Assembly (NCBI RefSeq): GCF_038561965.1
Contig: NZ_CP139348.1
Coordinates: 1,546,340-1,610,339 of the forward strand
Direction: 5' to 3'
DNA length: 64,000 nt
Source of the DNA: Stutzerimonas stutzeri
GTDB taxonomy: Bacteria; Pseudomonadota; Gammaproteobacteria; Pseudomonadales; Pseudomonadaceae
A program made the position numbers and the translations under genes. How positions within the stretch are numbered: the stretch's first letter is position 1; every line of letters starts with the position of its first letter. The notes beneath the pieces were generated by a model, which was not told where the DNA came from, searched no databases, and saw nothing but the letters and a program-made list of their open reading frames with translations. Below are positions 25,381 to 38,691 of the stretch, one piece after another.

Positions 25381-26301
25381 TCAGACGCCCTGCGGAACCT
25401 CCTCGCCGCCGAACGCTTCGAACAGTGCCGGCAGGAACTCGCGGAAGGTCATCATCATCAGCAGGAAGCTGGCGTCCTGCTGAGCGAGCGCATCGTCACC
25501 GCCATCCTGTTCGGCCTGGTCTTGCAGCAATTCCTCGAAGCGCAGGCGCTTGATGATCAGCTTGTCGTCCAGTACGAACGAGAGCTTGTCCTGCCAGGCC
25601 AGGGAAAGCTGAGTGACCTGCTTGCCGGCTTCCATATGCTGCTGAATTTCGTCGCTGGTCAGATCCTGGCGCTTGCAGCGCACCACGCCACCGTCTTCAT
25701 GGGTATCACGCAATTCGCATTCGTCGAGCACGAAGAAGTCATCCGCAGCCTTTTGCGTCTTCACCCAGTCGGTGAGTGTGGCGCTTGGTGCGATCTTCAC
25801 CGTCAATGGGCGCACCGGCAGCGAGCCAATGGCTTCGCGCAGGGTGGATAGCAGATCTTCGGCTTTCTTCGCGCTGGCGGAGTTCACCAGGATCAGGCCG
25901 CGCTCGGCGTCGATAGCGGCAAAGGTGCCGGATTTGCGAATGAAGGCGCGGGGCAGGAAGGCCTGGATGATCTCGTCCTTGATCTGGTCGCGCTCCTTCT
26001 TGTAGACCTTGCGCATCTGCTCCGCTTCGATCTCGTCGATCTTGTCCTTTACAGCGTCCTTGACCACGCTGCCCGGCAGGATGCGTTCTTCCTTGCGCGT
26101 TGAGATCAACAGAAACCCCTGGCTGACATGCACCAGCGGGGCGTCTTCGCCTTTTCCGAAAGGTGCGACGAAGCCGTAGGTGCTCAGCTCCTGGCTGGCG
26201 CAGGGGCGGGCGGGTTTGGCGGCCAGTGCAGCTTCGAGTGTCTCGGCATCTAGAGCGACATTTTGGGTGAGACGGTAAACGAGCAGATTACGAAACCACA
26301 T
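25381..26301 (-). CDS. rdgC: recombination-associated protein RdgC
   Basis: [11 protein letters not shown]... a typical RdgC N-terminus, 306 aa. Confidence 0.9.
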
Positions 26302-26464
26302 GGCGGGGTAGATCTCCGGAAAGCAAAGGGGTGCATTATTCCTGCCTGGCTACTTAAGGCCAACCCTGGATGAAGTGAATGGGCTGTGAGCTGTAAAAAA
26401 CACCGGTTTAACGAGGGTTTTCCTAAGTCTTTGGAACTTCTGCAATTTTTTTTTCGAAAGGGGG

Positions 26465-26493
26465 TTGCCAAGGTGCAGAACCCTCTCTAGAAT
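26465..26493 (+). promoter_or_regulatory. strong sigma70-type promoter for the tRNA-Val/tRNA-Asp operon
   Basis: -35 ttgcca (26465-26470), 17-nt spacer, -10 tagaat (26488-26493). An AT-rich UP-like tract (ctgcaatttttttttcgaaa) lies upstream. Confidence 0.5.
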
Positions 26494-26515
26494 GCGCCCC
26501 ACTTCGAGAGCAAAC

Positions 26516-26591
26516 GGGTGATTAGCTCAGCTGGGAGAGCATCTGCCTTACAAGCAGAGGGTCGGCGGTTCGATCCCGTCATCACCCACCA
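26516..26591 (+). tRNA. tRNA-Val (anticodon TAC)
   Basis: 76-nt cloverleaf: acceptor gggtgat/atcaccc, anticodon loop ccttacaag, T-loop ggttcgatcc, CCA encoded. Confidence 0.92.
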
Positions 26592-26604
26592 CTCGAGGTT
26601 TAGC

Positions 26605-26681
26605 GCAGCGGTAGTTCAGTCGGTTAGAATACCGGCCTGTCACGCCGGGGGTCGCGGGTTCGAGTCCCGTCCGCTGCGCCA
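26605..26681 (+). tRNA. tRNA-Asp (anticodon GTC)
   Basis: 77-nt cloverleaf: acceptor gcagcgg/ccgctgc, anticodon loop cctgtcacg, T-loop gggttcgagtccc, CCA encoded. Confidence 0.92.
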
Positions 26682-26720
26682 TATTCGCTTTATGGGTCCA
26701 CTGAACACCTTGAAGCAACG

Positions 26721-26749
26721 AAAAAACGGCCTTTTAGGCCGTTTTTTTT
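26721..26749 (+). terminator. rho-independent terminator of the tRNA operon
   Basis: aaaaaacggcc tttta ggccgtttttttt. Confidence 0.6.
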
Positions 26750-26938
26750 GCCTGATTTTTTACTGGGGTGGCCGTTGCCTCCCCAGTCCGGTCCTCGCGG
26801 CGGAAATGTTACGTGCTTCCTTTCTTTGCCATCTCTTTACGATCCTTGCCGGGAGGCGCGGTAGCCACTGCCGGTGTGCGCTGCTAAGCTCGGGCACTGA
26901 TTTTTTCGATATGCCCACAGCGTAATTAAGGAAACAGC

Positions 26939-27688
26939 ATGAGACTGAGACACCATCGTTTGGCACCTGCGGTTGCGCTGGTTGGCCTGGTACTGGCCGG
27001 CTGCGACTCGCAGACCAGTGCCAAGCTCGACACTCCGGCGCAGAAGGCGTCCTACGGCATCGGCCTGAACATGGGCAAGAGCCTCGCGCAGGAGGGTATG
27101 GATGATCTCGATTCCCAAGCTGTGGCGCAGGGCATCGAAGACGCCATCGGCAACAAAGAGCAGAAGCTTACCGATGAGCAGCTGATGGAAGCATTCACCT
27201 TCCTGCAGACTCGCGCCGAAGAGCGCATGACTGAGATGAACGCCAAGGCGGTCGAGGCCGGCAAGAAATTCCTCGAAGACAACGCCAAGCGTGACGGTGT
27301 GAAGACCACAGAGTCGGGGCTGCAGTACGAAGTTGTCAAAGCGGCCGAAGGTCGTCAGCCGACCGAGAGCGACGTGGTGACCGTGCACTACGAGGGCAGC
27401 CTGACTGACGGCACCGTCTTCGACAGCTCGATCAAGCGCGGCAGCCCGATCGACCTGCCGGTCGGCGGCGTGATCCCTGGTTGGGTCGAAGGTCTGCAGC
27501 TGATGCACGTCGGCGAGAAATACAAACTCTACATCCCGAGCGAACTGGCCTACGGCGAGCAGAGCCCGAGCCCGCTGATTCCAGCCAATTCGGTGCTGGT
27601 GTTCGATCTCGAGCTGCTGGATATCAAGGGCGAGGCGGCTGAGCAGCCATCAGCCGAGCAGCCTGCTGAAGCGGCAGAGCAGCAGTAA
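26939..27688 (+). CDS. fklB: FKBP-type peptidyl-prolyl cis-trans isomerase (FkpA/FklB-like) lipoprotein
   Basis: Lipobox LAGC, an N-terminal dimerisation helix and a C-terminal FKBP domain (VTVHYEGSLTDGTVFDSS...). RBS aaggaaacagc. Confidence 0.85.
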   Translation: MRLRHHRLAPAVALVGLVLAGCDSQTSAKLDTPAQKASYGIGLNMGKSLAQEGMDDLDSQAVAQGIEDAIGNKEQKLTDEQLMEAFTFLQTRAEERMTEMNAKAVEAGKKFLEDNAKRDGVKTTESGLQYEVVKAAEGRQPTESDVVTVHYEGSLTDGTVFDSSIKRGSPIDLPVGGVIPGWVEGLQLMHVGEKYKLYIPSELAYGEQSPSPLIPANSVLVFDLELLDIKGEAAEQPSAEQPAEAAEQQ

Positions 27689-27714
27689 TAAGCGGACATT
27701 GCGTCGCTTGAAAC

Positions 27715-27748
27715 AAAAACGCCCCTACTCGATCGGGGCGTTTTTGTT
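27715..27748. terminator. bidirectional terminator shared by fklB (+) and bfr (-)
   Basis: aaaaacgcccc tactcgatc ggggcgttttt, with an A-run upstream and a T-run downstream. Confidence 0.6.
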
Positions 27749-27763
27749 TGATGCCTAACCGAA

Positions 27764-28234
27764 TCAGTCGTCCATCTGCGACTGCAGGTAGTTTTCCATT
27801 CCAACCTTGTCGATCAGGCTCAGTTGGGTTTCCAGCCAGTCGATGTGTTCTTCTTCCGACTCAAGGATGTCTTCCAGCAGCTCGCGGCTGCCGTAATCGC
27901 CAATGCTTTCGCAATAGGCAATGGCGACCTTAAGGTCTTGTACGCCGCCATGCTCCAGCCTCAGGTCGCACTCAAGCATCTCGCGGGTGTTTTCACCGAT
28001 CTGCAGCTTGCCCAGGTCCTGCAGGTTCGGCAGACCTTCGAGGAAGAGGATGCGCTTGATCAGCTTGTCCGCATGCTTCATCTCGTCGATGGATTCTTCG
28101 TACTCATGCTTGCCGAGCTTGCCGAGACCCCAGTCCTCATACATGCGCGCGTGCAGAAAGTACTGGTTGATGGCTACCAGCTCGTTGCCGAGAATTTTGT
28201 TGAGGTGCTGAATGACCAGCTTGTCGCCTTTCAT
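27764..28234 (-). CDS. bfr: bacterioferritin
   Basis: [36 protein letters not shown]... the classical Bfr sequence. Start at the internal ATG of the longer ORF. Confidence 0.9.
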
Positions 28235-28384
28235 GTAATTAGCCTGCCTGGAGCGGTGGGAATAGAACCAGTCTGGCCACGGCAAGGCGGGCTGTCAAAC
28301 CTAAGTCTTTGAATGCAAAAGCTAAAATCTAGCGAGAATGGTTGCGTTCCGCATCCTGGATGGCAACTGACTGATTTGCAGGCA

Positions 28385-28409
28385 TAAAAAAGCCGGGCAT
28401 CGCCCGGCT
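28385..28409 (-). terminator. terminator-like hairpin after bfd (minus strand)
   Basis: gccgggc atc gcccggc hairpin with a T-run on the minus strand (A-run on the plus strand). Confidence 0.4.
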
Positions 28410-28425
28410 ATACGGCTTCAGTCTG

Positions 28426-28644
28426 TCAAGCCTGAACGAAACTTGCTGGGTGGGCGAGGGATGCCTGGGCGTTCTGTACGTTGCTGAGTGTCTCGCGAAC
28501 GACCTGCTTGGCAACGCAAGCGCACTTGCCGCACTGGGTTGCGACACCAGTCGTTTCCCGTACTTCACGATAGCTGCAGCAGCCTTCGTAGATTGCATCG
28601 CGAATCTGGCCGTCGGTTACACCCTGGCAGAGGCAGACGTACAT
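28426..28644 (-). CDS. bfd: bacterioferritin-associated ferredoxin Bfd ([2Fe-2S])
   Basis: MYVCLCQGVTDGQIRDAI...CGKCA, the Bfd cysteine pattern. It lies directly upstream of bfr. Confidence 0.85.
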   Translation of the reverse strand: MYVCLCQGVTDGQIRDAIYEGCCSYREVRETTGVATQCGKCACVAKQVVRETLSNVQNAQASLAHPASFVQA

Positions 28645-28685
28645 AAGCACTACCCGTTAAGTTCGTTGTTGGTAGCGATGCTAAT

Positions 28686-28704
28686 CAGAATGAGAATAAT
28701 TGTC
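28686..28704. promoter_or_regulatory. Fur-box-like operator in the bfd promoter region
   Basis: cagaatgagaataattgtc matches the 19-bp Fur consensus GATAATGATAATCATTATC at 14 of 19 positions. It lies 40-60 nt upstream of the bfd start. Confidence 0.45.
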
Positions 28705-28861
28705 AAAGCTCGTTCGTCGCCTTGACGAATTTCAGCCGCGTGCTGTGGTTGGCGGCGGCGTGTAACGGCTTGAGCGACAATGTTCGAAGCTTTCGTCGCG
28801 CTTCTCTGTGTGCCGTGACTCGGCTCCGCGTCACGTTTCTAGAAAATTACATGTGAGCTTG

Positions 28862-28889
28862 TTGCGCTTATCACATGTGCTGATATTCT
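28862..28889 (+). promoter_or_regulatory. putative promoter of the DUF2170/PspA/flotillin cluster with flanking palindromes
   Basis: -35 ttgcgc (28862-28867), 16-nt spacer, extended -10 TGaTATTCT (28881-28889). Palindrome CACATGTG at 28873-28880, related acatgtg at 28849-28855, and a further inverted repeat cgtgac(N10)gtcacg at 28814-28835. Confidence 0.4.
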
Positions 28890-28895
28890 GGCGGC

Positions 28896-29516
28896 ATGGA
28901 AACGAAATCGTCCGCACATTATCAGCGCCTTTTTCGGCAGCGCCTGCGTGATCAGGGGTTGGTGAAAAAGGAAGTCTGGATTTTGCCCGAGCATTCAGTA
29001 CGGCTTGCGGCCTTGGAGAAGAGAATGCGCCAGCCGCTTCAGGGGCTGGCTTCATGTGAGATGGAAGAAGGTATGAATATGCCGCAGCTATGGACCGCCC
29101 AAGCGTTGCATGACGCTATTGAAACCACGGAACTGTGTAAGAACGGTCAGATTGCAATCGAGCTGATCCAAGGGGCTGACGCCAGCCTGCGCGTCACGAT
29201 GCGCGAGTATGGCGACCTGCCGATCTATGTGGCAGTGGTCGGCGAGCAAATCATCGTCGAGGCGCTGCTTTGGCCGGTTTCTGATGTGCAGGATCCGACC
29301 GCATTCAATGAACAGATATTGCGCACTCACAAGCTGTTTCCACTTTCGTGCATCGGCATCGAGTCGCTTCCAGATGGCCAGCCTTGCTACACCATGTTCG
29401 GTGCATTGAGTTCGGCGTCCACGCTTTCGGATGTGGTGCTGGAGATCCAGTTGCTTGGCGATAACGTGATCAAGGCTACCGAGGCGTACGAAGGCTTTCT
29501 CAAGGCCGGCATTTGA
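28896..29516 (+). CDS. DUF2170 (YjfI-like) family protein; N-terminal extent uncertain
   Basis: The C-terminal ~145 aa resemble YjfI, the E. coli gene partnered with yjfJ. The longest ORF starts at an ATG at 28896 with no RBS, right at the predicted transcription start. In-frame ATGs at 29061, 29073 and 29079 are alternative starts, and GC3 is lower upstream of them. Confidence 0.6.
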   Translation: METKSSAHYQRLFRQRLRDQGLVKKEVWILPEHSVRLAALEKRMRQPLQGLASCEMEEGMNMPQLWTAQALHDAIETTELCKNGQIAIELIQGADASLRVTMREYGDLPIYVAVVGEQIIVEALLWPVSDVQDPTAFNEQILRTHKLFPLSCIGIESLPDGQPCYTMFGALSSASTLSDVVLEIQLLGDNVIKATEAYEGFLKAGI

Positions 29517-29535
29517 GCTCTAAAGGAGATCTGAG

Positions 29536-30231
29536 ATGAATGTATGGAGCAAGCTGCTTACCGCTCTGCGCGGTGGTGTCAATGAGGCGGGCGAAGCGGT
29601 AGTGGATAGCCAAGCGCTGCGTATTCTTGATCAGGAAATACGCAATGCCGATTCCGAGTTGCGCAAAGCCAAGGAAGCGCTGGCCGAAATAATGGCCAAG
29701 CAGAAGTTGGCTGCTGAGCGTGTCAACAAGGCTACTACAGCGATCAGCGAATACGAACAGTATGCGTTGAAGGCCCTTGAGGCCGGTGATGAGCCGTTGG
29801 CCAAAGAAGTTGCCGCAAAGATTGCCAATCTTGAGGCTGAGCAGATAGCCGAGCGCGAACAGGCCGATAACTATGCTGAGAGCGTGGCGCAACTGCGCAA
29901 GGCCGTCAGTCAGGCGGAAGCACATATCAAGCGGCTCAAGCAGCAGGTTGATACGGTCAAGGCTACGGAGAGTGTGCAGAAGGCCCAGATGGCCGTCGCC
30001 CAGCGCTACGGCGGCTCGCAGGCCAAGTTGCACACCGCGGTTGAGTCGCTCGAGCGGATCAAGCATCAACAGGCCGAGCGCGCAGCGAAGATGGAGGCAA
30101 CGGCCGAGCTGGCGCAAGCGTCCAGCGTCGACGAATCACTTGACGCCAAATTGCGCGCCGCGGGGATCGTTGCCGACAACGCCAGTGCAGACAGCGTGCT
30201 CGCACGCTTGAAGGACAAAGCCAAGGGCTGA
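29536..30231 (+). CDS. PspA/IM30 family protein (YjfJ-like)
   Basis: 231-aa all-helical coiled-coil protein with a PspA-type N-terminal amphipathic helix (MNVWSKLLTALRGGVNE...). RBS aaggag upstream. Confidence 0.85.
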   Translation: MNVWSKLLTALRGGVNEAGEAVVDSQALRILDQEIRNADSELRKAKEALAEIMAKQKLAAERVNKATTAISEYEQYALKALEAGDEPLAKEVAAKIANLEAEQIAEREQADNYAESVAQLRKAVSQAEAHIKRLKQQVDTVKATESVQKAQMAVAQRYGGSQAKLHTAVESLERIKHQQAERAAKMEATAELAQASSVDESLDAKLRAAGIVADNASADSVLARLKDKAKG

Positions 30232-30307
30232 TCCGGCCATCAGCGACTACGAGAGCTTAGTCGCGCGGAATCGGCGAGAGTCGCGGCACAACACAAGGAT
30301 GTGATCG

Positions 30308-30952
30308 ATGGATTTGTTCATACAGACTGCTTTGAGCTTTCCGGTGGTGCTACTCAGCTTTGTGCTGGGTATATCCATTCTGTACTGGTGTGTGGCGGCC
30401 CTCGGTATGGTCGACGTGGACGTACTCGACGTCGAGATGGAGTCTTCTCTGGAAGATACGTCGTTTCAGCCGGAAGGCCTGGCTGGCCTGCTGCTCAAAT
30501 TCGGTCTGTCCGGGGTTCCAGTCACGCTGGTGCTGACCCTGCTGTTCTTCTTTTCCTGGTTGTTCTGTTATTTCGCCCAGCTGTTGGTGCTGCGCTTCTT
30601 GCCGCTCGGCATTTTGCGTTACCCACTAGGCCTGGTGCTGACCGTGGTTGCGCTGCTGCTGGCAGTGCCGATCTGCGGCGCGCTTGTCCGTCCACTTCGC
30701 CCGCTGTTTCTGAAGCTTCACGCACCCACTCATCGCTCCTTGCTCGGCCAGGTAGCTGTCGTGCGCAGCGGTACGGTTACGTCGAGTTTTGGCGAGGCCA
30801 CTCTGGAGGATGGCGGTGCTGGGCTGATCCTGCGAGTCAGAGCGGATGAGCAGGCCGGGTTCAAGCGCGGTGACCGCGTGGTTTTGCTGGAGTACCTGGA
30901 GGCTGAGAATGCCTATCGGGTCATTACCGAAAGTGAATTCAAGGGCATCTAA
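30308..30952 (+). CDS. YqiJ-like inner-membrane protein (DUF1449; short NfeD-like with C-terminal OB-fold)
   Basis: Several N-terminal transmembrane segments and a C-terminal soluble beta-domain. It is the usual partner gene upstream of a YqiK-type flotillin. Confidence 0.75.
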   Translation: MDLFIQTALSFPVVLLSFVLGISILYWCVAALGMVDVDVLDVEMESSLEDTSFQPEGLAGLLLKFGLSGVPVTLVLTLLFFFSWLFCYFAQLLVLRFLPLGILRYPLGLVLTVVALLLAVPICGALVRPLRPLFLKLHAPTHRSLLGQVAVVRSGTVTSSFGEATLEDGGAGLILRVRADEQAGFKRGDRVVLLEYLEAENAYRVITESEFKGI

Positions 30953-30979
30953 GCCCGCTTTTTAAAAGGAGTTGATGTA

Positions 30980-33022
30980 ATGAGCCTCGAACTGGTGATG
31001 CCTTTCCTGATCGGATTGGGCGTGTTCTTCCTCTTGATCATGGGCTTCTTTGTCCTGTTCAAAGCCTTCTATATCAAGGTCCCGCAAGGCACGGCGCTGA
31101 TCGTCAACGACATGTCGTCGATGCCCAAGGTCCACTTCACAGGTGCCCTGGTCTATCCGGTGATCTACAAAAAGGAGTTCATGAAGATCTCCTTGCTGAC
31201 GCTGGAAGTCGATCGCCGCGGCAAGGATGGTCTGATCTGCCAGGACAACCTGCGTGCCGATATCACCGTCGCTTTTTATCTACGGGTAAACGAGACCCAG
31301 CAGGACGTGCTGAAGGTCGCCAAGGCGATCGGCGTGGATCGTGCCTCCGATCGTGCAGCGGTGAATGAGCTGTTCAATGCCAAGTTCTCCGAAGCACTTA
31401 AGACCGTGGGCAAGCGCTTCGATTTCGTCCAGCTGTTCGAAGAACGCCAGAGCTTTCGTGACCGTATCGTTGAGGTGATCGGCAACGATCTGAATGGCTA
31501 CGTGCTTGAAGACGTCGCGATCGATTACCTGGAGCAAACGCCCAAAAGCTCCCTGGATCCAAACAATATTCTCGATGCCGAAGGTATTCGCAAGATCACT
31601 CAGCTGACGGCTGCGCAGAACATCATCACCAACGACTTCGAGCGCAACGAAGAGTTGGCTATTAAGAAGAAGAACGTCGAAACCCGTGAGGCTACTCTGG
31701 CGCTTGAGCGTCAGGAGGCTGATGCGGTGGCTAGGCAGAAGCGGGAGATCGAGACCATTCGTGCGCGCGAGCATGCTGAAACGCTCAAGGTGCAGGAAGA
31801 GGAGCGGTTGAAGGCCGAACAGGCCCGCATTCAAACCCAGCAGGAGCTGGATATCCGCGCAGAGAACCACCAGCGTGAAGTCGAGGTGGCGCAACAGAAC
31901 CGCCAGCGCGCTGTGGTCATCGAAGTCGAGAAAGTGACGCGTGCCAGGGATCTGGAGATCGTGGCTCGCGAGCGTGAAGTCGAACTGCAGCGAATCGAAA
32001 AGGAAAAGGCGCTGGAAGAAGAGCGCAAGAATATTGCTTCAGTCATTCGTGAGCGTGTGGCGGTCGAGAAAACCGTTGCTCAGGAAGAAGAGCGCATCAA
32101 GGAAGTTCGCGAGGTCTCCGAGGCCGAGCGAATGAAGCAGGTCGTGGTACTCAATGCCCAGGCGGAGGCAGAGCAGGAGCTGGTGCGTCAGGTCAAGCAG
32201 GCCGAAGCGGACGAAACGCGCTCCAAGCACAAGGCTGTGGAAATCAATACGTTGGCCCAGGCCGAGCTGGAGGCAGCTGCCAAGCAGGCGGAGGCCAAGA
32301 AGAAGCTTGCCGAGGGCGTCGAAGCCGAGCGTGCAGCACCTGGCCTGGCTGATGCGCGGGTGCGTGAGGTCACCGCGGCAGCGAAAGAGAAGGAAGGGCT
32401 GGCCGAAGCGCGTGTGCAAGCGGAGCAACTGATCGCAGCTGCCAAGGGCGAGCAGGAGAAGGGCCTCGCCGAGGCACGGGTGATTGAGGCCAAAGCAGGC
32501 GCCAAGGAGAAGGACGGTCTGGCCGAGGCCAAGGTGCTGGAAGAAAAACTCATAGCCCAGGCCCGCGGCGAGGAGCAGTTGGGCAGTGCCAAGGCCAAGG
32601 CGGCCCAGGATTTGGGTATGGCCGAGGCGCACGTGCTATTGGAGCGTCTGAACGCCGAGGCCGAAGGCTTGGGCAAAAAGTTCGGCGCGCTGGACTCGCT
32701 CAGCGACGGTGCGCGTCAGCACGAAGAGTTCCGCATGCAGCTGGAGAAGAGCTTCGAAGAGGCGATGGCCTCGATCGCGGCGAACAAGGACATCGCCAAG
32801 GACCAGGCAGAGGTGCTGTCGGCGGCGCTGTCGAAAGCCAAGATCGAAATCGTCGGGGGCGAAGGCGACTTCTTCAATTCGTTCGCCAAGTCGTTGTCGG
32901 TGGGCAAGGCGATCGAAGGTGTGGTTGGCAAGAGTCCGGTAGTTCAGGACGTGCTCGCGCGCTTGCTCAATGGCCGCGCTGCTGAAGCCAAACCGATGCG
33001 CGCTGACGCCAGCGAAGTTTGA
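30980..33022 (+). CDS. flotillin-like SPFH/band-7 protein (YqiK family)
   Basis: N-terminal transmembrane hairpin, an SPFH domain, then a ~400-aa E/A/K/R-rich coiled coil containing three tandem ~21-aa repeats (EKxGLAEARV...). RBS aaggag upstream. Confidence 0.85.
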   Translation: MSLELVMPFLIGLGVFFLLIMGFFVLFKAFYIKVPQGTALIVNDMSSMPKVHFTGALVYPVIYKKEFMKISLLTLEVDRRGKDGLICQDNLRADITVAFYLRVNETQQDVLKVAKAIGVDRASDRAAVNELFNAKFSEALKTVGKRFDFVQLFEERQSFRDRIVEVIGNDLNGYVLEDVAIDYLEQTPKSSLDPNNILDAEGIRKITQLTAAQNIITNDFERNEELAIKKKNVETREATLALERQEADAVARQKREIETIRAREHAETLKVQEEERLKAEQARIQTQQELDIRAENHQREVEVAQQNRQRAVVIEVEKVTRARDLEIVAREREVELQRIEKEKALEEERKNIASVIRERVAVEKTVAQEEERIKEVREVSEAERMKQVVVLNAQAEAEQELVRQVKQAEADETRSKHKAVEINTLAQAELEAAAKQAEAKKKLAEGVEAERAAPGLADARVREVTAAAKEKEGLAEARVQAEQLIAAAKGEQEKGLAEARVIEAKAGAKEKDGLAEAKVLEEKLIAQARGEEQLGSAKAKAAQDLGMAEAHVLLERLNAEAEGLGKKFGALDSLSDGARQHEEFRMQLEKSFEEAMASIAANKDIAKDQAEVLSAALSKAKIEIVGGEGDFFNSFAKSLSVGKAIEGVVGKSPVVQDVLARLLNGRAAEAKPMRADASEV

Positions 33023-33100
33023 TGATCCCAGGGCGCCTGAATCTGAAAGCAGAGTGCCCGTTCTGGCTCACCTGATGAGCCGCTGCAGCAAGGAGTGTTT

Positions 33101-33340
33101 ATGTCTGAACCAAGGGATTATCTGGAAATGTCCTTCCGCTCGATTCAGTGCTTTGCCAATGATGGCCGCCTGGACGTGAACGAGCTCGGTGCTCTGCTGG
33201 ACATCGCCGAGCGCGACGGTGATATCGATGAAAACGAAGCTCGTGTGCTGACAAAGATCATCGAACGTATCCGGCCCGAGGAAATCGACCAGCCAATGCG
33301 CGACAAGCTCGCCGAGGTGGCCAAGAAAATCGGAGCTTGA
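33101..33340 (+). CDS. small acidic hypothetical protein (79 aa)
   Basis: ATG 5 nt after an aaggag RBS. Helical, Asp/Glu-rich (DIAERDGDIDENEARVL). Sits between the flotillin gene and the giant ATPase gene. Confidence 0.5.
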   Translation: MSEPRDYLEMSFRSIQCFANDGRLDVNELGALLDIAERDGDIDENEARVLTKIIERIRPEEIDQPMRDKLAEVAKKIGA

Positions 33341-33444
33341 GGCATCCTCCAGATCACCAGCCATTCGGCGTTCCCCGCTACTTAGTGCAGCCCCGTGCGA
33401 CCGGGGCTCGTTGCTTGCAGACCGCATAGATTCAAGGAAGACCC

Positions 33445-36400
33445 ATGATGTCGGACGTCCAAGCCGAAAATACCCAGGACATTCTCGATAAAGCCGTCGC
33501 GCAAGGCGGTGCTTACGAGGTGCTGCACAAGCGACTGCAGGAGCAGGGATTACGTCTTCGGCATATCACCGAGAGCTTGAACGAAGAGCGCCTGGAGGCC
33601 TTCGGCAGCAGCCGAATGGAGGTGGTGGGGCGCGTCCGTATCCGTACCGAGAATAACTGCACGGCACGTGATATCGTCCAGGTTGGCGACAGCTTGCTGT
33701 TTGGCTACAACGTTTTTCTCGGGCTCAAGAAAGAAACCCGTGTCGAGGACGTATTTTCGATCTATCGATTGAGCGAGCAGGCCGAGGGCTACGAAGCCCA
33801 AGCCGTGTCGCTTGAGGGCAGCTTTCTTGCCCAAACCAGCTTCGTAAACGACTTCAACGAGCTGTACACCTACTACAAAAACACCCGCTTGCTGCAACTG
33901 ATAGTGCGTGACGGCAAGCTGCTGGCCAGCTTCCAGATCGGCGAGCGGGTCACTGACATCCGGGTATTCCGCTGGTCAATCTCCAATGACGGCAAGGATG
34001 TCCGGTATATCGACAACCGCGGTGAACGCGATATCGCGTTGCCGGCACCATTCGATTTCGAATGGCAGAAGACTTCTCGTGAGATGGCGGTCAACGGCCG
34101 CCATCCGCACCTGAATATCCTCGACACATTGTTCGTCGAGACGATTGGCGGCGACCTGACCGTTAAGGTGGAAAACAATACCGACGACGGCCTAGGCATC
34201 TACCGTGAGGCGGTGCTGGACAAGACCCAGTCCCTCGACGATGCACAGATCGAATACGCCAGGCTCGGTAGCCTGATTCTGCTCAAGGTGCTGCCGTATC
34301 GGGAAGAGCAGTGGCGCTATCTGGTCTTCAACAGCCTGACGCGCTCGGTTGAGCGCCTTGATGCAATCGGGCTCGCCTGCGTTCAGTTGCCAGAAGACCA
34401 TGGAATCATCTTCCCTGGCGGTTATTACCTGCAGAACGGAGAGTCGAAGGCGTTCGAGCAGTCGATGGACGGCATGCGCTTCAAGCGCGCGGTGCGCTCG
34501 CCTAACGGTGAGGATGTGCAGTACATCTTCTACCACCCGGAAGAAGGGCGATCGGCGTTGTTTACCTACAACATGATCGACCGCCAACTGCAGAATCCGA
34601 TTTTCGGTCATGGCTATGCCCGGCTCGAAGACGGGCGCATGGTGATCTTTTCTGCCGAAGGCAGCGAACCCACACGCATCCACCCGATGCAGATCTGGCA
34701 GACGCCATTCTGTACCGATGACTTCGCCGCACGGCAGCCTGCGCGCAGCGGGTTCTTCGGGCGCATCGGCAACGCCGAGTTGGTGCGAGGCGTATCCGAC
34801 CTGTTCAACCTGAGTCGCGAGATCGATGCGCCGCAGATATCGGTGCAGCGTTATACCCAGCTCTGCCAGAATACCCGCCGTCTGTTCGATGCCTACCATT
34901 GGCTGGGCGATGCCCAGTGCCAGGGGCTTGCCCTGCTCCTGCGCGAGATTGCAGCAACCGGCGAGCTGGTACTCGATGAGTTCGAGAAGGTCGAGAGCAT
35001 TCGTCAGCAATCGAGCCGTGCGATGGCCGAAGCCCAGACCCGCCAGAAGGCATTGCTCTCCGGGTTGTTGACCGACAGCTGGGACAGGGTGCAGCAGTTC
35101 GTCGAGGCGCTTAACGCGATCAACTCACAGCGCGGCCAGCTGCTGACCATTCGTGACTACCGCTATATCGATGTCTCGCGCATCGATGCCATGGAGGCCG
35201 AACTGCTCGAGGCGCAGGAACGGGCCAGTTTGGCGACTTCGAGGTTCCTCGCCAGCGATGCGGCGCTTGAGCCTTATCTGCTGGAACTCAGTGACCACGA
35301 TGCGGCGGCGCAGAAGGCGGAAACCGTCACCCAGCTCAATGAGCCCTTGGCCGGTATGCAGGATATGGCTGCAGGGCTGGACATGCTTTCGGGCCTGATG
35401 GCGTCGTTGTCGATCGATGATGCCACCGAGCGCACCCGCATCGTTGAATCGATCTCGGAAGTGTATGCCCTTCTCAACCAGGCCAAGGCGCGAGCGGAGC
35501 AGCGCCGCAAGGGGCTCGGTTCGGCGGAAACAGTGGCCCAGTTCGGTGCTCAGTTCAAATTGTTCAGCCAGGGCATCACCAACGCTCTGGCCCAGGCATC
35601 GGACCCGGAGCGCTGCGACGAGCAGCTCTCACGTCTGCTGGTGCAGCTTGAGGAGCTGGAAAGCCAGTTCGGTGATCACGAACAGTTCCTCGGCGACATC
35701 CTGAGCAAGCGTGAGGAGTTGCTGGAAACTTTCGAGGCGCACAAGCAGAGCCTGCTCGATGATCGCCAGCGCCGCGCCCAGGGCGTCCTCGATGCTGCGT
35801 CGCGCATCCTCGACAGTCTTGGCCGACGTACTGCCCGTCTGAACCTGGCGGAGGAGCTCAACGCCTTTTTTGCCGCCGACCCGCTAATCCTCAAGTTGCG
35901 TGAGATGGTCGGGCGCCTGCGCGACCTCAAGGACAGCGTCAAGGCAGACGATGTAGAGGCGCGCCTGAAGAGCGCCCGCGACCAGGCGGTGCGGGCGATG
36001 CGCGACAAGAGTGAGCTGTTCGAGGCAGGTGGCAATGTCATCCGGCTGGGCCCGCGCCACCGTTTTAGCGTCAACACGCAGGAGTTGGATCTGACCCTGC
36101 TGCCCCGTGGTGATCAGCTCTATCTGCACCTGACCGGGACCGACTTTCTCGAGCCGTTGCGTGATTCCGAACTCGAAGCGTTACGCGAATTCTGGCAGGT
36201 GTCGCTGGAGTCGGAATCGGAGGCGTTGTACCGCGCCGAGTACCTGGCCGGCGAAGTGCTCGCCGCCGCAGACGCCGGACAAGATGGCCTGGATATCAAT
36301 AGCCTAAAGCAGCTACTCGCCGACCGTGAGGCGCTGACCAGACGCATTCGAGATTTTGCCGCCCCTCGTTACCGGGAAGGCTACGAAAAGGGTATCCACG

Positions 36401-38691: not shown

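Follow-up and report, generated by a model that had tools for sequence, protein, structure and literature searches.

A large AAA+ ATPase of Stutzerimonas stutzeri encoded with NfeD-like and flotillin-like proteins: BacE orthology, conserved gene context, and a putative role in remodelling membrane scaffolds

Introduction

The closest described counterpart of the locus considered here is bacABCDEF, the “biofilm-associated cluster” of Pseudomonas aeruginosa (Mace 2008, PMC2587700; Wallart 2024, PMC10948618), an operon with effects on biofilm formation, on the production of rhamnolipid, and on virulence. Its fifth gene, bacE (PA3728, also PA14_16190), encodes a very large protein with an AAA+ ATPase module. 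The subject of this report is the BacE protein of Stutzerimonas stutzeri, which is encoded on a stretch of 64,000 nucleotides (nt) referred to throughout as the window (assembly GCF_038561965.1, contig NZ_CP139348.1, positions 1,546,340–1,610,339 of the forward strand). Its open reading frame (ORF) occupies positions 33445..38691 of the plus strand, begins with ATG, and specifies 1748 amino acids (aa).

Both the family and its operon have been described before. Working from gene context, Ravi et al. 2024 (PMC11237479) gave the architecture, the operon, including a PLD/HKD gene “in some Proteobacteria”, and the ESCRT-like analogy, and arrived at the same general prediction of ATP-dependent, ESCRT-like membrane dynamics; nothing essential in their account differs from ours, and the operon was treated experimentally by Wallart et al. 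2024 (PMC10948618). The BacE finding is thus already known, and the original prediction for this window, made from the sequence alone, re-derived a published one independently. Added here are a residue-level catalytic set that includes a family-wide DD Walker B motif and defines residues for mutation, structure models, a domain order relative to the account of Ravi et al. (bundle/propeller, helical arm, helical domain, and AAA+ module), counts that make the flotillin/NfeD pair, and not PspA, the obligate and constant partner, and a conserved palindrome upstream of bacA, while the database label “DNA repair ATPase” is set aside.

Two other kinds of described machinery invite comparison. HflK/C with FtsH illustrates how SPFH cages organise AAA+ machines (PMC13220708), and the bac cluster resembles both that complex and the NfeD–SPFH pairs QmcA–YbbJ, YqiJK, and YuaF–FloT in the genetic coupling of an SPFH scaffold and an NfeD partner to an AAA+ machine. 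BacE differs from FtsH in having neither a protease domain nor a membrane anchor, and instead of being housed in a periplasmic cage it would work on or at the cytoplasmic side of a scaffold of the flotillin type. The second comparison is with Vps4 and CdvC, the AAA+ partners of ESCRT-III polymers; a 2025 review notes that bacteria seem to have no Vps4-like ATPase (PMC7619361).

Orthology and Constant Gene Context of BacE

The 1748-aa protein is the orthologue of P. aeruginosa BacE, as established by full-length similarity (77% identity, 100% coverage) together with a shared gene order. In P. aeruginosa, genes for a DUF2170 protein, PspA, a 213-aa protein, a 688-aa protein, the 1746-aa BacE, and a PLD protein follow one another, matching PA3732 through PA3727, i.e., bacA-F. 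The window cluster has the same BacE domain set and the same order, but differs in possessing two additional genes, a 79-aa ORF 5′ of bacE and a rhomboid gene between bacE and the PLD gene. The ORF cannot be a chance one, since a word-indexed search recovered more than 6000 homologous clusters at 90% identity, the best 120 of which were all full-length matches with E = 0 and 64–98% identity. Clustered at 50% identity, the family numbers 420 clusters with E below 1e-30, and its members are always 1600–2100 aa in length with the same Pfam set. Because no transmembrane (TM) segment is predicted in BacE (maximum Kyte–Doolittle 19-residue average, 1.54), the protein is, by its sequence, soluble and cytoplasmic.

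A genome scan restricted to one genome per species yielded 80 loci, drawn from Pseudomonas and its relatives, Lysobacter, Stenotrophomonas, Xanthomonas, Xenorhabdus, Providencia, Gilliamella, Thauera, Lampropedia, Cellvibrionaceae, Thiotrichaceae, and a zetaproteobacterium. BacC and BacD homologues were found directly upstream of bacE and on the same strand in all 68 proteobacterial loci with enough upstream sequence. BacA occurred near bacE in 38 of 67 loci and PspA in 36 of 67, with a PLD gene present in 19 and a rhomboid gene in 17 of the full set of 80. The BacE family also extends to Acidimicrobiia, Streptomyces and other actinomycetes, Myxococcota, Planctomycetota, and Acidobacteriota, and seven extra loci were compared, from Ilumatobacter, Streptomyces, Streptosporangium, Pseudoalteromonas, and metagenome-assembled genomes (MAGs) assigned to Polyangiales, Pirellulales, and “Deltaproteobacteria”. 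Six of the seven have a BacD homologue immediately upstream of bacE (42–50% identical and ~645–707 aa where complete, two of them with a Band_7 match), usually preceded by a small protein matching the C-terminal domain of BacC, while PspA was found near bacE in none of the seven.

Since the NfeD-like and flotillin-like genes accompany bacE in 68 of 68 and six of seven loci, and PspA does so in only about half of the former set and none of the latter, the constant functional unit is the NfeD-like protein, the flotillin-like protein, and BacE. To this unit, individual lineages add the CesT-like/PspA dyad, the PLD protein, the rhomboid, TelA, or the 79-aa protein. The same pattern of gene context had already been noted qualitatively by Ravi et al. 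(PMC11237479). The PspA and flotillin-like neighbours, which the original prediction had read as the context of a membrane-associated machine, are real, and its interpretation is supported in part. The tie to flotillin/NfeD is obligate, and the tie to PspA is facultative.

BacC has been classified as a short NfeD protein (PMC13086221) and as YqiJ/YuaF-like (PMC11237479), and in strain PA14 the corresponding genes are PA14_16160, encoding the short NfeD protein, and PA14_16180, encoding the SPFH protein PaFlo3 (PMC13086221). The BacD protein of the window gave no direct match to Pfam, and a profile of its orthologues gave no match in the PDB; its SPFH identity follows from the Band_7 matches of the orthologues from Ilumatobacter (44% identical to window BacD; E 1.4e-11) and Streptosporangium, as well as from the literature. 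BacD has one TM segment, at its N-terminus, with Lys residues after it, which suggests that the bulk of the protein is cytoplasmic and within the reach of BacE.

These counts bear directly on the possibility that BacE is a functional Vps4 analogue that binds the PspA-family protein BacB and disassembles or recycles PspA polymers, with flotillin serving only as a membrane anchor, an explanation that we consider unlikely. The genes for PspA and its CesT-like partner do lie in the same co-directional cluster in the window and in 36–38 of 67 related loci, the genes of the whole bac cluster are regulated together in P. aeruginosa (PMC10948618, PMC12041424), and bacterial PspA has no known Vps4-like ATPase (PMC7619361), hence an open niche. 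Nevertheless, PspA is missing near bacE in about half of the proteobacterial loci and in all seven extra loci, while BacC and BacD accompany bacE throughout the proteobacterial set. As those genomes could carry PspA at another site, this absence weakens the Vps4-analogue explanation and goes no further; additional points against it come from the AAA+ module, discussed below.

Two homologues stood apart in the wider comparison. Those from assemblies labelled as the actinomycete Phytomonospora and as a Longimicrobium (Gemmatimonadota) MAG are 63–66% identical to the gammaproteobacterial protein, far above the 35–48% of the genuine actinobacterial ones, which points to recent transfer or to contamination in assembly or binning.

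The AAA+ Module and Its Place Among AAA+ ATPases

BacE possesses a single AAA+ module near its C-terminus, as originally predicted, to which Pfam assigns AAA_5 (aa 1292–1419, above the gathering score) and AAA (aa 1293–1337). The Walker sequences given in that prediction are exact, although they had been placed around residues 1330–1420 and actually lie at aa 1296–1304 and 1360–1368 (Table 1). The module was aligned with 72 diverse full-length representatives, 49–75% identical to window BacE in this region, for a total of 73 sequences. At least 97% conservation was found for S1296-P-P-G-Y-G-K-T1303, D1364-D-I-Q-H1368, G1411-N-P-Y-T1415, P1424-D-M-L-x-N-R1430, and Q1542-G-S-Y-R1546, and conservation along BacE peaks in the AAA+ core, with a mean column conservation of ~0.75 versus 0.3–0.55 elsewhere. 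Because it follows strand beta4, N1412 is the candidate sensor-1 residue, and R1430, which we take to correspond to the arginine of the (L/S)(D/N)RF or SRF motif in MoxR, midasin, and MCM, is the candidate arginine finger, with R1546 as the candidate sensor 2. A lack of conserved arginine-finger and sensor residues had been named at the outset as a finding that would speak against the original prediction, and these candidates are instead retained. Judged by the near-invariance of its predicted ATP-binding and hydrolysis residues, the AAA+ module of BacE is catalytically equipped.

The Walker B motif merits separate mention. DD Walker B motifs occur in DnaA- and DnaC-type switch ATPases, and because DD in place of DE is conserved throughout the BacE family, it suggests a slow, switch-like, or partner-stimulated hydrolysis rather than that of a fast threading motor.

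By profile, the core of BacE is closest to the MoxR/AAA_5 group of the pre-sensor-2-insert clade, which includes NorQ, CbbQ, and RavA as well as the modules of midasin and dynein. AAA_5 alone covers the whole core (profile positions 2–127 of 139, 28–32 bits versus a cut-off of 22) and does so in 16 of 16 family members, AAA_3 matches only four of the 16 with E values of 0.035 or weaker, and PF00004 aligns to profile positions 2–69 only, which means that BacE has no classical second region of homology. Typical MoxR ATPases are compact proteins of about 300–500 aa that are paired with a VWA-domain adaptor and carry a canonical hhhhDE Walker B motif. BacE is unlike them in its LYVDD Walker B, in its 1748 aa, and in the absence of any VWA domain among its neighbours, in the window or in 11 annotated loci. 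Helix alpha2 (aa 1340–1355) is uninterrupted and preceded by a long loop, and no helix-2 insert was seen in the AlphaFold2 (AF2) model, where the predicted local distance difference test (pLDDT) of the region is 63–84. A test of the MoxR-type motif, with a 90-residue query extending from just after Walker B through the arginine-finger region, returned no match of any kind in the PDB, and a regular-expression scan of the window and the fetched loci found no MoxR reference gene. Its place among the clades being loose, BacE is best regarded as forming a separate AAA_5-like lineage, neither a bona fide MoxR nor a Vps4.

The profile evidence also makes room for a different client. If BacE were a MoxR-type maturation chaperone for another membrane complex, its fused propeller would replace the VWA adaptor and the flotillin/NfeD pair would merely be the work-bench, and AAA_5 is indeed the best profile across the whole core. 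No conserved candidate client besides BacC and BacD was found in the neighbourhood, however, and the missing VWA gene, the DD of Walker B, and the lack of a visible helix-2 insert all speak against a chaperone of this type, which seems improbable to us. It overlaps with the function proposed below and differs from it only in the client.

With Vps4 and CdvC, BacE shares the proximity of an AAA+ gene to a gene of the ESCRT-III superfamily (PspA) and a general layout in which a distal N-terminal recognition module is joined by a linker to a single AAA+ ring module. It differs in belonging to another AAA+ lineage, in lacking a classical second region of homology, an aromatic pore loop, and a MIT domain, and in that PspA is dispensable for the gene linkage. 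The same features, namely the missing MIT domain, the truncated PF00004 alignment, and the absent aromatic pore loop, count against the Vps4-analogue explanation introduced above. The resemblance between BacE and Vps4 is at most a functional analogy, and the original prediction had likewise offered it as an analogy and not as homology.

Domain Architecture Outside the AAA+ Module

The remainder of the protein is not “otherwise unrecognisable”, as had been supposed. DUF3686 (PF12458) matches aa 38–485 (E 1.2e-206, profile positions 2–448 of 448), and DUF7902 (PF25472) matches aa 607–689 (E 1.5e-26). AF2 models built on shallow alignments (35 sequences, 62–92% identity) covered aa 1–520, with a pLDDT of 85.7 and a predicted TM-score (pTM) of 0.81, and aa 840–1748, with a mean pLDDT of 69. 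In the first model, helices at either end form a bundle that encloses a beta-rich domain of ~26 strands. When this N-terminal domain was compared with the PDB by Foldseek, the top 50 matches were all beta-propellers, with E values down to 6e-9 and a probability of 1.0, yet TM-scores of only 0.2–0.3, and for this reason aa 59–419 of BacE are described as modelled to be propeller-like and non-canonical. The expectation of a beta-rich region in the first ~400 aa was borne out; the internal repeats that had been reported are not detectable in the sequence, where self-BLAST gave no off-diagonal match, and exist only as blade-like beta-meanders in the structure. The beta domain is presumed to be the partner-recognition domain.

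Residues 421–1240 are mostly helical in the modelled parts, with a few small beta elements, so the ~900 aa of helical sequence claimed originally was roughly right. The first portion is a coiled-coil-like arm whose only PADLOC match, to LmuB (E 5.7e-5), is of the coiled-coil type; towards the C-terminus there follow a confidently modelled helical domain, the AAA+ core, a helical lid, and finally a poorly conserved tail. No solved relative of BacE was found in the PDB, where the whole protein and the AAA+ profile returned only short P-loop matches to RuvB, p97, Rix7, and midasin.

This anatomy can be set against the name that homologues carry in databases. “DNA repair ATPase” appears in the Pfam description of DUF3686 and in NCBI and UniRef homologue names, and as a function for BacE it might draw on the weak RuvB P-loop matches, the nuclease-like PLD neighbour, and, in P. 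aeruginosa, the presence of recJ ~1.4 kb downstream. The RuvB equivalogs, however, score 18–19 bits against cut-offs of 282–299 and cover ~45 residues around Walker A, the PDB match to RuvB is confined to 42 residues at the P-loop, and the SMC/LmuB-type signal reflects coiled-coil composition alone. No DNA-binding or nuclease domain was found in the 1748 residues, the genes conserved beside bacE encode membrane proteins in each of the lineages compared, and literature searches found nothing linking PA3728 to DNA repair and nothing on DUF3686 or on flotillin together with “DNA repair ATPase”. The label is rejected as unsupported, and a repair function is, in our estimation, hardly credible; the original prediction had already recognized the name as a product of annotation transfer without support in the sequence.

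Proposed Function

Of the functions considered, the likeliest is that BacE, in the cytoplasm, uses ATP to remodel the flotillin/NfeD scaffold together with whatever PspA that scaffold has recruited, a proposal to which we would give about even odds. The AAA+ modules would oligomerise into a ring, as suggested by the conservation of the candidate arginine finger, which would act in trans. Long arms would hold the N-terminal propeller-like domains onto the cytoplasmic flotillin/NfeD assembly at the inner membrane, and ATP binding and hydrolysis would drive remodelling of the scaffold, whether by assembling it, opening it, or extracting its subunits. Where PspA is present, a PspA polymer recruited to the scaffold could also be remodelled during envelope stress, such as that of biofilm growth, osmotic shock, or phage infection. 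A precedent for such recruitment is provided by an SPFH protein of Bacillus subtilis that tethers PspA to the membrane, according to work cited in PMC7619361.

Several points weigh against scaffold remodelling by BacE. In the “Deltaproteobacteria” MAG, the two genes upstream of bacE encode proteins of 649 aa and 999 aa that have no BLAST similarity to BacD. Deletion of paFlo3 (bacD) in PA14 lowered biofilm by only ~20% (PMC13086221), whereas bacA and bacB mutants have marked phenotypes in the literature, a contrast that suggests flotillin may not be the main effector. The AAA+ core was modelled with moderate confidence (pLDDT ~65–84, falling below 50 near the sensor-1 and arginine-finger loops), and no conserved aromatic pore-loop residue is evident after strand beta2 in the 73-sequence alignment, a point against a classical unfoldase of the substrate-threading kind. 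It is also possible, given the DD of Walker B, that hydrolysis is very weak.

A broader and more tentative version of the scaffold-remodelling proposal, possible but rather doubtful at present, is that the BacE family represents the missing ATP-driven motor for bacterial membrane scaffolds: an AAA_5-like ring with six long arms that opens, disassembles, or recycles flotillin/NfeD cages and the PspA polymers recruited to them. If true, BacE would do the work of a Vps4 without being homologous to it, and no AAA+ machine dedicated to SPFH assemblies would have been known before it. For the control of assembly and disassembly of PspA/Vipp1 polymers and flotillin/SPFH cages, the BacE family is the most obvious candidate for an ATP-driven regulator.

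Expression and Regulation

Experimental work in P. aeruginosa ties bacE to its operon. By reverse-transcription PCR, PA14_16190 (bacE) and PA14_16200 (bacF) are co-transcribed with bacA-D, all operon products increase 6–13-fold in a bacA mutant (8.9-fold for bacE), and biofilm growth and osmotic stress are further inducing conditions (Wallart et al., PMC10948618). PA3728–PA3732 are jointly induced upon infection by two virulent phages (PMC12041424) and again in a stress proteome, in a 2026 paper that calls them “ORFs of unknown function” (PMC13637947). In addition, PA3728 has been listed as an “ATPase” among the genes recurrently mutated in cystic-fibrosis isolates (PMC8190622; also PMC4199492).

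Phage induction raises the idea that the bac cluster is an inducible anti-phage or abortive-infection system, in which BacE would sense infection or serve as the motor, and the effector, a nuclease or phospholipase, would be the PLD-like HKD protein. Beyond the response to two virulent phages (PMC12041424), the resemblance of the PLD-like protein to NucT, DrmC, and DpdK and a patchy distribution suggestive of horizontal transfer (PMC13086221) would be in keeping with defence. In the window, the start of the cluster (26000–34000) has a G+C content of 0.55–0.59 versus 0.60–0.66 in the flanks, slightly lower, as would fit the horizontal-transfer history suggested for paFlo3 (PMC13086221). PADLOC nonetheless detected no system-level match: beyond the coiled-coil match of BacE, BacB gave only coiled-coil-type matches (LmuB, JetC, PbeC), BacA, BacC, BacD, and the rhomboid gave none, and only the PLD-like protein matched DrmC/Mko/DpdK-type HKD models. 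The PLD gene is present in just 19 of 80 loci, the constant partners are membrane scaffolds, and induction by biofilm growth and osmotic stress resembles a generic, phage-shock-type envelope response (PMC10948618). A defence function for the cluster as a whole accordingly strikes us as very unlikely.

A candidate regulatory element is present at the head of the cluster. A perfect palindrome lies 18 nt upstream of the bacA start in the window, and with one substitution allowed per arm it recurs at a distance of ~20 nt from the bacA start in 28 of the 39 fetched loci with bacA, among them those of P. aeruginosa, Lysobacter, Thauera, Cellvibrionaceae, and Nevskia. All 28 matches in the 1.75 Mb of locus sequence fall at this bacA-upstream site, and the window contains a single match in its 64 kb. 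The palindrome is likely to be an operator of the bac operon or a hairpin in its 5′ untranslated region, and no description of it was found in the bac operon literature. A sigma-54 promoter has been proposed for bacA of P. aeruginosa, but no such consensus is present upstream of bacA in the window: a search of 28700–28896 for the -24/-12 pattern TGGCAC-N5-TTGCW, with up to two mismatches, found none, and matches across the window as a whole occurred at chance level. Likewise, a promoter and terminator scan of the bac cluster returned nothing above the shuffle background.

Neighbouring Genes and Other Features

The features of BacE and the genes around it are collected in Table 1.

Table 1. Positions in the window of BacE features, neighbouring genes, and the candidate regulatory palindrome.
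Feature	Position (nt)	Strand	Remarks
Palindrome ACATGTGA-N14-TCACATGT	28849..28878	+	Perfect; 18 nt upstream of bacA start
bacA-like gene, DUF2170/CesT-Tir-like chaperone-regulator, 206 aa	28896..29516	+	Pfam DUF2170 E 1.4e-51; NCBIfam “biofilm formation regulator BacA” E 4e-100, above cut-off
bacB-like gene, PspA/IM30 (ESCRT-III superfamily), 231 aa	29536..30231	+	Pfam PspA_IM30 E 7.8e-53
bacC-like gene, short NfeD/YqiJ-YuaF-type membrane protein, 214 aa	30308..30952	+	C-terminal beta domain
bacD-like gene, 680 aa, PaFlo3 orthologue	30980..33022	+	N-terminal TM segment, SPFH/Band-7, long E/A/K/R-rich helical region, flotillin-like C-terminus
79-aa acidic helical ORF (MSEPRDYLEMSFRS...), between bacD and bacE	33101..33340	+	Weak TerB-like match, E 0.013
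BacE N-terminal module, aa 1–520	33445..35004	+	Helices 4–53 and 425–519 form bundle enclosing beta-rich domain (model)
BacE beta-rich propeller-like domain, aa 59–419	33619..34701	+	~26 strands, roughly seven 4-stranded meanders (model)
BacE helical/coiled-coil-like arm, aa 521–860, including DUF7902	35005..36024	+	58% A/E/L/K/R/Q
DUF7902 match	35263..35511	+	
BacE helical domain, aa 919–1239	36199..37161	+	pLDDT 90–96; no recognisable relative; conserved G983, H985, D988 (GIHDHD)
BacE AAA+ alpha/beta core, aa 1245–1440	37177..37764	+	
Walker A SPPGYGKTT, K1302	37330..37356	+	At least 97% conserved in 73 sequences, except T1304
Walker B MLYVDDIQH	37522..37548	+	D1364-D1365 conserved; DD instead of DE
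Predicted beta-hairpin, aa 1386–1399	37600..37641	+	alpha3–beta4, pre-sensor-1 position; AF2, pLDDT about 63–76
Candidate sensor-1 Asn, N1412 (GNPYT)	37678..37680	+	At least 97% conserved; role by position after beta4
Candidate arginine finger, R1430 (PDMLANRAD)	37732..37734	+	At least 97% conserved; role by analogy
BacE helical lid and extension, aa 1441–1640	37765..38364	+	Conserved LQGSYR
Candidate sensor 2, R1546 (LQGSYR)	38080..38082	+	At least 97% conserved
Rhomboid-family intramembrane protease gene, 181 aa, minimal	38688..39233	+	Pfam Rhomboid E 4.7e-18; start overlaps bacE stop by 4 nt
PLD-like single-HKD protein gene, 230 aa, BacF (PA14_16200) orthologue	39249..39941	+	PLDc_2 E 2.6e-30; HxKx4D...GSxN motif

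Two of the genes in Table 1 are absent from P. aeruginosa, where the gene directly 3′ of bacE is the PLD-like bacF (PA14_16200) and not a rhomboid. The 79-aa ORF is called as a gene on the source contig and has tblastn matches in 15 loci, in places that vary from 5′ of bacE to 3′ of bacE and 5′ of bacA, and probably represents a genuine accessory component of the bac system. The rhomboid retains the GASG serine, the TM6 histidine, and the HxxxN motif, and it is conceivable that this putative protease might process BacD, with its single TM segment, or BacC. Loci with a rhomboid gene include those of Xenorhabdus and Providencia, which are without PspA.

A different arrangement is seen in Stenotrophomonas maltophilia (locus L026, 12856–14699), which has neither bacA nor PspA. 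There, a 234-aa ORF overlaps the bacE stop and is followed, two genes downstream of bacE, by TelA (toxic anion resistance), which may be an alternative helical membrane-stress partner in the place of PspA.

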